Source: a virus. From it: DNA of 64,000 nucleotides. Of this stretch, positions 5,479 to 7,219 are shown piece by piece. The stretch covers positions 96,001 to 160,000 of the IMG/VR virus record IMGVR_UViG_3300037258_000514; one strand, 5' to 3'. The first letter of the stretch is position 1. Each line of letters begins with the position of its first letter. The notes below the pieces were generated by a model, which was not told where the DNA came from, ran no database searches, and saw only the letters and a list, made by a program, of their open reading frames with translations. The position numbers and the translations under genes are program-made.

Positions 5479-5814
5479 TTACTCGTAAATACCTAAAACC
5501 TCTTCTTCACGCATCATTAATAGCTTTTCGCCATCGACTTCAATATCTACACCTGAATACGGTCCGAAAAGAACTGTCTCACCGACCTGAATATCAAGTG
5601 GAAACAATTCTCCATGTTCGTTCTTCTTTCCTCGTCCTACAGCTAATACTGTTCCCTTTAGTGGCTTATCTTGAGCTGCATCAGGAATAAACAACCCACT
5701 ATCTGTCTTTGTTTTGGCTTCATGTCGTCGAACGGTAAGACGATCGTGTAGCGGTTTAAACTTTTTTACTGCAAAAGCTGCTTTCTTTTCTTCCTGCATT
5801 GCTGTACTAGGCAT
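5479..5814 (-). CDS. groES: co-chaperonin GroES
   Basis: FKPLHDRLTVRR...GLFIPDAAQDKP..GTVLAVGRG...VLFGPYSG...MREEEVLGI. Confidence 0.95.
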   Translation of the reverse strand: MPSTAMQEEKKAAFAVKKFKPLHDRLTVRRHEAKTKTDSGLFIPDAAQDKPLKGTVLAVGRGKKNEHGELFPLDIQVGETVLFGPYSGVDIEVDGEKLLMMREEEVLGIYE

Positions 5815-5841
5815 TCTATCCCTCTCAGGAGTTTTAAAAAA

Positions 5842-5993
5842 TTAGCTTCGGGAACAAGCGATTCAAGTGTTTTTAGCGTGCTACCATTACACCACCGGCC
5901 AAGTCTATTCGTTATTGGTTGGCCAGCAAGGACTCGAACCTTGACCTCTTCCTCTCAAGGGAAGTAACTCAAATCATAACGCCACGAAGCTAA
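5842..5993 (-). ncRNA. YrlA-like Y RNA (element D) containing a circularly permuted tRNA domain
   Basis: 9-bp terminal stem, shared scaffold; T arm CAAGG-UUCGAGU-CCUUG, acceptor CUGGCCA-ACCA...UGGCCGG, D arm GUGU-AAUGGUA-GCAC. Confidence 0.85.
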
Positions 5994-5998
5994 ATTCT

Positions 5999-6095
5999 AT
6001 CCGCGGGGAATATGCGACTTAGGATAGCCCATACCAATAGGGCAGTTCCCCGATTACACGGTGAAGAAGTAACCCAAATCTATCGCCACGCAGAC
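5999..6095 (-). ncRNA. Y-RNA-like element C
   Basis: GUCUGCG-UGGCGAUA-GAUUUGGGU-UACUUC-two hairpins-GCAUAUUCC-CCGCGGAU. Confidence 0.75.
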
Positions 6096-6109
6096 TTAAA
6101 CTTTAAATC

Positions 6110-6315
6110 GTTCCAGGGAATAGTCGAATCTGGTCGATGTTACCTTTAGGGCTTACTTCATTCGGGTTTCAGTTATTTACTCCCCTACGTGTTTTAGCCT
6201 TATATCTCACATCTAACGGATTTGAAAAGGACGCTTAGCCTTTGTTCAGAAACGCTGTTTTGTTTCTGCTACAGCTGCTAGGTATGAAGTAGCCAGCTTC
6301 TGTCGCCACTGAAAC
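6110..6315 (-). ncRNA. Y-RNA-like element B (long insert)
   Basis: GUUUCAG-UGGCGACA-GAAGCUGGC-UACUUC-about 150 nt-GACCAGAUUC-GACUAUUCC-CUGGAAC. Confidence 0.72.
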
Positions 6316-6319
6316 AAAC

Positions 6320-7152: not shown

Positions 7153-7219
7153 CCGGGGAACAAACGACTAAAGGTATATTTTCTCCAATTGAGAAGTAAC
7201 CCTTAGTCTACGCCACCGG
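7153..7219 (-). ncRNA. Y-RNA-like element A (minimal)
   Basis: CCGG-UGGCGUA-GACUAAGGGU-UACUUC-small hairpin-ACCUUUAGUC-GUUUGUUCC-CCGG. Confidence 0.75.

Follow-up and report, generated by a model that had tools for sequence, protein, structure and literature searches.

The YrlA RNA of M. smegmatis is cut by RNase P both in vitro and in vivo and bears a CCA end in vivo (Chen et al. 2014, PMC4201824). It sits on Ro60 as two halves of 82 and 65 nt, the 82-nt half ending in CCA, and the possibility that it becomes charged has been raised (PMC4201824). It was singled out for its acceptor stem of 7 bp, found in no other YrlA tested, and neither the YrlA of S. Typhimurium nor Yrn1 of D. radiodurans was cleaved (PMC4201824). 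Binding by Ro60, and pseudouridine and dihydrouridine at the tRNA positions, are further marks of YrlA-type RNAs. The V stem-loop of YrlA, which starts at a conserved YUAY motif, has been equated with the variable arm, and Yrn1 was noted to have a "potential anticodon arm" whose stem is 5 bp long (Chen et al. 2014, PMC4201824). The T- and D-stem sequences of YrlA are strongly conserved and are the likely effector site, and both the likeness of YrlA to circularly permuted tRNAs and its origin from a dimeric tRNA have been discussed (Wang et al. 2018).

The window analyzed here is a stretch of 64,000 nt (positions 96001-160000 in the record of an uncultured virus, 175,952 bp in length). A tRNA-like Y RNA lies on its minus strand, 510 nt upstream of the gene for a phage Ro60, and is one of five Y-RNA modules (Table 1). 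The distance from the end of this RNA (5842) to the Ro60 start on the same strand (5332) is well within the roughly 4 kb from a TROVE gene expected of a YrlA. Read 5' to 3', the minus strand presents an open reading frame (ORF), three tandem Y-type RNAs, the GroES-like gene, a further Y module, Ro60, and five tRNA genes. The three tandem RNAs occupy an ORF-free segment (6319-5815), and no ORF of at least 50 amino acids overlaps 5815-6319 on either strand. All five modules, which were confirmed by reading the sequence and by partial matches of a family profile, share an outer scaffold: the 5' strand is of the GUGGCG type, a YUAC-UUC motif is present, and the 3' strand carries the conserved motif ...UUGUUCCC. 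The other four combine this scaffold with differing inserts (a tiny hairpin, two hairpins, or about 150 nt) and form, together with the tRNA-like Y RNA, an array that surrounds groES and Ro60. The GroES-like gene stands between the array and Ro60 in the window; in the inspected relatives, by contrast, Ro60 directly adjoins the Y RNAs.

Table 1. Parts of the tRNA-like Y RNA and neighboring features in the window
Feature	Position	Strand	Basis or remark
Whole YrlA-type Y RNA, ~152 nt	5842..5993	minus	fold and family profile match 5987-5846
Terminal-stem 5' strand and conserved GUGGCG-type putative Ro60-binding strand	5975..5993	minus	common to the five window modules and relatives
3' strand with conserved ...UUGUUCCC motif and terminal stem	5842..5862	minus	pairs with 5982-5993 in the fold; conserved in relatives
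Inner Y helix, 5' strand	5966..5975	minus	pairs with about 5860-5869 in the fold
V hairpin, anticodon-arm geometry	5948..5964	minus	5-bp stem 5960-5964/5948-5952, 7-nt loop 5953-5959; conserved UUAC just before
4-nt variable loop ending in U48	5944..5947	minus	U48 is the Levitt partner of A15
T arm, 5 bp, UUCGAGU loop	5927..5943	minus	compensatory changes in relatives
Acceptor stem 3' strand	5920..5926	minus	seven pairs with 5895-5901, one G-U
Encoded discriminator A and CCA (ACCA)	5916..5919	minus	N-CCA recurs in long-loop relatives
14-nt A/U-rich linker, predicted to be removed	5902..5915	minus	N-CCA statistic and M. smegmatis precedent
Acceptor stem 5' strand	5895..5901	minus	predicted RNase P site between 5902 and 5901, by precedent
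U8-G9 and D arm	5878..5894	minus	U8-G9 5893-5894; D arm 5878-5892, 4 bp, loop with A14, A15, G18, G19, A21
G26 and single-stranded link to Y helix	5869..5877	minus	fold
U tract right after terminal stem, possible transcript end	5836..5841	minus	sequence reading
Y module without tRNA body; 4-bp hairpin, 7-nt CU-NNN-AA loop	5374..5474	minus	weak scaffold match to family profile
Y module without tRNA body	5999..6095	minus	sequence reading and family-profile match
Y module with large insert, ~150 nt	6110..6315	minus	sequence reading
Minimal Y module, scaffold and one small hairpin	7153..7219	minus	sequence reading and family-profile match
Phage Ro60 ortholog, 445 aa	3995..5332	minus	TROVE and Ro60 vWA domains
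GroES-like co-chaperonin gene	5479..5814	minus	Cpn10, E 5e-29; between Y RNAs and Ro60
ORF	7138-6320	minus	without Pfam match

The initial annotation had described this RNA as a Y RNA that carries the complete parts of a tRNA in circularly permuted order, from an anticodon-like arm to an internal CCA. Each of the listed elements is present in that rotated order on the minus strand at 5842-5993, and the minimum-free-energy fold agrees, with the same five-way junction and with the Y helices enclosing the rotated tRNA parts. In this fold the terminal stem pairs 5985-5993 with 5842-5850, and A73 can pair with U(-1) as an eighth acceptor pair. The z-score of the fold against shuffles is only -1.7, which is unremarkable, and the U tract that follows the terminal stem was not called by the terminator scan. 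The bases of the tRNA core are in place (U8, A14, G18-G19, A21, G53-C61, and the UUCGAGU T loop), and the T arm, acceptor, and D arm that define YrlA are all found in the window RNA. The Levitt pair is A15-U48, and a canonical pair occurs at this position in 57 of 61 relatives, as G15-C48 in 42 and as A15-U48 in 15; this is the covariation already reported for YrlA. Compensatory changes occur in the T and acceptor helices of the relatives, and from a MAFFT alignment RNAalifold retrieved no more than the T arm and some of the acceptor stem. The recurrence of N-CCA and the covariation of the V hairpin in relatives, both detailed below, show that the rotated arrangement is not due to chance.

An nhmmer profile built from 59 YrlA-like RNAs beside related Ro60 genes, with the window excluded, matches the RNA from 5987 to 5846 (E 4.9e-12; model positions 11 to 139 of 148). 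By this end-to-end match, the RNA is a divergent member of the YrlA lineage, which bears out its earlier assignment to the tRNA-mimicking kind of Y RNA. The Ro60 proteins of the relatives share 44 to 70% identity with the phage Ro60, and their RNAs score 30 to 46 bits against the Rfam YrlA model (RF02553; gathering threshold, 69 bits). The window RNA itself gives no match to that model even at E 10, because its T- and D-stem sequences are unusual, a hairpin is inserted, and the acceptor loop is long. The dominant stem sequences of the family (D in 38 and T in 24 of the 61 elements) differ from those of the window RNA. YrlA has a 5'-proximal Ro60-binding motif, GNCGAA(N)G; the window RNA has a related but nonidentical GGCG-type motif, putatively Ro60-binding, that is common to the modules and relatives. 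No close relative of the RNA was found by blastn against phage records or in two exact-pattern scans of viral contigs, and the YrlA that accompanies the closest Ro60 (70% identity, L008) is of the closed-loop type.

The RNA shares with the YrlA of S. Typhimurium (RF02553; 6CU1, Wang et al. 2018) the rotated tRNA wiring, the tertiary contacts, and, presumably, the character of a Ro60 partner. In that RNA, however, the acceptor stem has 6 bp and a small closing loop, there is neither a CCA nor a V hairpin, and the Y helix itself replaces the anticodon stem, whereas the window RNA has a 7-bp stem, a long loop with an encoded CCA, and the V hairpin. The Rfam YrlA consensus likewise has no V hairpin, a 6-bp acceptor stem, and a 3-nt loop. 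Closer in design is the YrlA of M. smegmatis, which also lies upstream of Ro60, contains T, D, and V parts, and has an acceptor stem of 7 bp (PMC4201824). Its Ro60-bound halves measure 82 and 65 nt, and those predicted for the window RNA 78 and 60 nt. It differs in encoding a single C, to which CA is added later, while the window RNA encodes the whole ACCA. Yrn1 of D. radiodurans differs from the window RNA by a 6-nt loop, another wiring, and an incomplete D arm.

Two systems outside the Y RNAs show comparable arrangements. Two-piece tmRNA (RF04321), known from alpha-proteobacteria and some phages, is likewise arranged as T arm, acceptor 3' strand, ACCA, disposable linker, and acceptor 5' strand, but the tag reading frame, pseudoknots, and alanine charging of tmRNA have no counterpart in the window RNA, and neither ARAGORN nor Rfam called a tmRNA in the window. 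Brevundimonas phage Gurke has a permuted tmRNA gene some 2 kb downstream of its Ro60 gene (L096:5842-6187; Rfam tmRNA_permuted, 57.7 bits). The permuted tRNAs of Cyanidioschyzon and the split tRNAs of archaea share the rotated order, and their acceptor stem is at first closed until RNase P or RNase Z opens it. Those RNAs are spliced and ligated into normal decoding tRNAs, while the helix that joins the parts of the window RNA is the conserved putative Ro60 site, and the phage record yielded no ligase gene. ARAGORN calls no contiguous cloverleaf tRNA in the native order, and the Rfam tRNA model (RF00005) scores 26.9 bits over the hairpin, T arm, and acceptor strand with the D arm deleted, which is below its cutoff of 29 bits.

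The acceptor ends of the phage RNAs fall into two clear types, one closed by a tetraloop and the other with a 7-bp stem, an encoded N-CCA, and a linker. Among 70 distinct elements, 53 have a 7-bp acceptor stem, and 46 of these are closed by loops shorter than 8 nt, mostly GNRA tetraloops. The loop is at least 8 nt long in the remaining 7, and in 6 of them it begins with N-CCA (binomial P 1e-10); these six are not fully independent, with L066 and L068 related and two copies coming from one Rhizobium phage, and the P value is still very small after related copies are merged. They are the window RNA, L066, L068, Caulobacter phage CcrColossus, and two copies in Rhizobium phage TM21B. The recurrence of N-CCA in six of seven long-loop elements argues against chance and for a selected feature. 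In the same phage, all 32 tRNA genes detected by ARAGORN encode their CCA end, and a search for a gene for a CCA-adding enzyme found none. One of these tRNA genes has a CUA (amber-reading) anticodon and another an 8-nt anticodon loop; both lie outside the window, at G000:C1:41272-41347 and 84616-84690.

The encoded ACCA and its linker suggest opening of the acceptor end by RNase P and 3' trimming. We infer, with a probability of about 0.6, that this YrlA-class Y RNA is the partner of the phage's own Ro60 and is opened in this way into a two-piece, CCA-ended, tRNA-like module. Ro60 and GroES, encoded downstream on the same strand, provide the context for its reading as a Ro60 partner. The missing Rfam YrlA match, the unremarkable z-score, and T and D stems that depart from the family consensus at the likely effector site (Wang et al. 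2018) weigh against this reading. Starting from the observed anatomy, homology, and recurrence of N-CCA, the course of binding, cleavage, trimming, and function may be pictured as follows. The two conserved outer strands would form the helix that docks on Ro60, and the inner part, with its rotated wiring, would adopt the L shape of a tRNA. Host RNase P would most likely cut 5' of U5901, between 5902 and 5901, and 3' exonucleases would trim the linker back to the ACCA, leaving A5916 as the end. [quoted passage not shown] The loop of the V hairpin would be kept in the U-turn shape of an anticodon loop, with its middle three bases free to vary. Of the earlier proposal of a two-piece, chargeable tRNA mimic, the two-piece part thus gains from the recurrent N-CCA and linker, while its charging is unlikely, as no identity set fits.

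The strongest competitor is the same YrlA-type RNA staying in one piece, with the ACCA and linker forming an enlarged closing loop and the CCA never exposed. The uncleaved YrlA of S. Typhimurium and Yrn1 of D. radiodurans (PMC4201824) are precedents for it, most relatives are closed by a tetraloop, and the possible eighth pair between A73 and U(-1) could shift or weaken cleavage by RNase P. Against it, N-CCA would hardly stand at its exact position in six of seven long-loop elements unless a CCA end were selected for, and the uncleaved YrlAs have shorter stems, whereas the stem of the window RNA has 7 bp, the length tied to cleavage by Chen et al. (PMC4201824). We regard a one-piece RNA as rather unlikely.

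The hairpin that had been described as an anticodon arm does have the exact geometry of one. The UUAC directly before it identifies it as the V stem-loop of YrlA. A perfect 5-bp stem and 7-nt loop with a 4- to 5-nt variable loop right before the T stem are found in 16 of the 61 distinct YrlA-like elements, where about one case is expected by chance, and at least 4 of 5 pairs in that register are found in 30. In the fixed register, 91% of the cells are paired versus 66% in shuffles and 35 to 52% in slid controls, a percentage inflated by the preselection of rows with at least 4 of 5 pairs. The counts of double-sided changes in the stem cells, which that preselection does not inflate, are 31 versus 7.8 expected. 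Sorting of the hairpins by their longest contiguous stem gave scattered alternative registers, because G-rich 3' strands permit competing helices, and only the fixed-register table is informative. The length of the link from the D arm to the Y helix was also compared with the presence of the hairpin; helix detection was noisy in this comparison, and only three hairpin-less cases could be scored.

The universal signature of anticodon loops is C32-U33, a variable triplet, a purine at position 37, and A38. Among 28 V loops, C32 is present in 22, U33 in 26, a purine at position 37 in 25, and A38 in 21, together with 20 different middle triplets. The flanks of the loop are thus conserved, and the triplets vary even between close relatives. 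Hairpins with CU-NNN-AA loops after YUAC also occur in Y modules devoid of T, D, and acceptor parts, both in relatives and in the window (5474-5374). The minimal module (7219-7153) has only a small hairpin at this place, and some YrlAs have no V hairpin altogether. The presence of the hairpin in modules without a tRNA body marks it as an element of the scaffold that was not inherited with the tRNA body. What had been taken for an anticodon arm is therefore the V hairpin of the family scaffold, which probably does not decode, although its geometry is as claimed.

When the two halves are de-rotated and joined, ARAGORN reads a tRNA-Ser(UGA). With shuffled hairpins, 50 to 54 of the 61 elements are still called; the de-rotation test is uninformative about the hairpin because shuffled hairpins pass equally often. 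ARAGORN also reads the V hairpin of phage Gurke as an anticodon arm. GenBank lists a 75-nt "tRNA-Ser" in this phage (L096:2266-2340) and a 68-nt "tRNA-Gln" in phage CcrColossus (L098:1628-1695). Both span a Y-stem strand, the V hairpin, the T arm, and the acceptor 3' strand, and they are probably misannotations of YrlA-type RNAs.

In many relatives, with kinship uncontrolled, the 7-nt V loops read C-U-G-U-N-A-A (for example, L017, L019, L023, L039, and L052, and Y modules in L033, L034, L036, L046, and L048), corresponding to "anticodons" GUN (Asp, Asn, His, Tyr). tRNA-guanine transglycosylase recognizes the U33-G34-U35 of GUN anticodons. The V loops of the window do not have the GUN pattern.

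A bolder alternative follows the initial annotation: the RNA would be a complete tRNA in two pieces, held on Ro60, and would either be aminoacylated or offer its anticodon-like loop as bait to host anticodon nucleases. The exact geometry of stem, loop, and 4-nt variable loop, the conserved loop flanks around triplets that change even among close relatives, the reading of such hairpins as anticodons by annotation tools in GenBank phage records, and the possible aminoacylation raised for M. smegmatis (PMC4201824) all speak for it. It is opposed by the occurrence of the same hairpin in Y modules that lack a tRNA body, by the atypical G37 after A36, and by the phage already encoding a tRNA-Ser(UGA).

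The identity rules of the synthetases weigh further against charging. The first five pairs of the acceptor are those of the phage tRNA-Gln(CUG), and in global comparisons with all 32 phage tRNAs the two tRNA-Gln genes match best, scoring 25 and 22 (background, 6.6 +/- 8). The resemblance to tRNA-Gln is thus real but modest, and the Gln-like acceptor described in the initial annotation is suggestive only. SerRS requires a long variable arm, which the phage's own tRNA-Ser(UGA) has and the Y RNA with its UGA triplet does not. GlnRS requires a YUG anticodon and G73, and the identity pair of AlaRS is G3-U70; the Y RNA has a non-Gln anticodon, A73, and G3-C70. No coherent synthetase identity set fits by these established rules, which makes charging unlikely. 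We therefore consider the tethered tRNA or bait quite improbable for the window RNA. Variable triplets acting as nuclease decoys are possible. The broader proposal, of a phage Y-RNA subclass that presents a two-piece tRNA on Ro60 with a free CCA end and a fast-changing mimic of the anticodon loop, either charged or a bait for tRNA-cleaving defense nucleases or anticodon-modifying enzymes, is improbable.

A true circularly permuted or split tRNA gene, from which the Y helix would be removed and the ends ligated to give a decoding tRNA, would share its rotated order with the permuted tRNA genes of algae and archaea, a likeness discussed by Wang et al. (2018). The flanking helix, however, bears the putative Ro60-binding motifs common to the four other modules, and the joining region is this conserved scaffold and not a bulge-helix-bulge splice motif. 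The same module is also closed by a tetraloop in relatives, and no gene for RtcB, Rnl1, or Rnl2 was found in the phage record, which is 86% complete. Bacteria are not known to possess the splicing endonuclease. With a joining helix that is the conserved putative Ro60 site and no RNA ligase gene seen in that record, maturation to a decoding tRNA is unlikely, and we hold this origin to be very improbable. A decaying, functionless remnant of two tandem tRNA genes, as the modest similarity to the phage tRNA-Gln genes and the dimeric-tRNA model for the origin of YrlA (Wang et al. 2018) might suggest, is scarcely credible, given that all bases of the tertiary contacts and the scaffold motifs are intact, the Levitt pair covaries, and the architecture is conserved in relatives.

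Each feature of the window RNA has a precedent in the YrlA literature, and the two-piece, CCA-ended, Ro60-bound form is already known from experiments on the YrlA of M. smegmatis (PMC4201824). Three points were not found described in that literature: the division of acceptor ends into two classes, one with an encoded CCA; the V hairpin's strict adherence to anticodon-arm geometry and its loop signature; and the presence of this hairpin in Y modules that lack a tRNA body. The reviews by Sim and Wolin (2018, 2020) might cover the encoded CCA class or an anticodon-like V hairpin.

For the YrlA family, being opened to a CCA end seems to be a trait that recurs and is under selection and not a quirk of one mycobacterium, and the phage Y RNAs with N-CCA are concrete substrates on which such opening can be tested. 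Such hairpins have probably already been misannotated as tRNA genes in deposited phage genomes. With its anticodon-loop shape, found even in modules without a tRNA body, the V hairpin is a new handle toward the effector.
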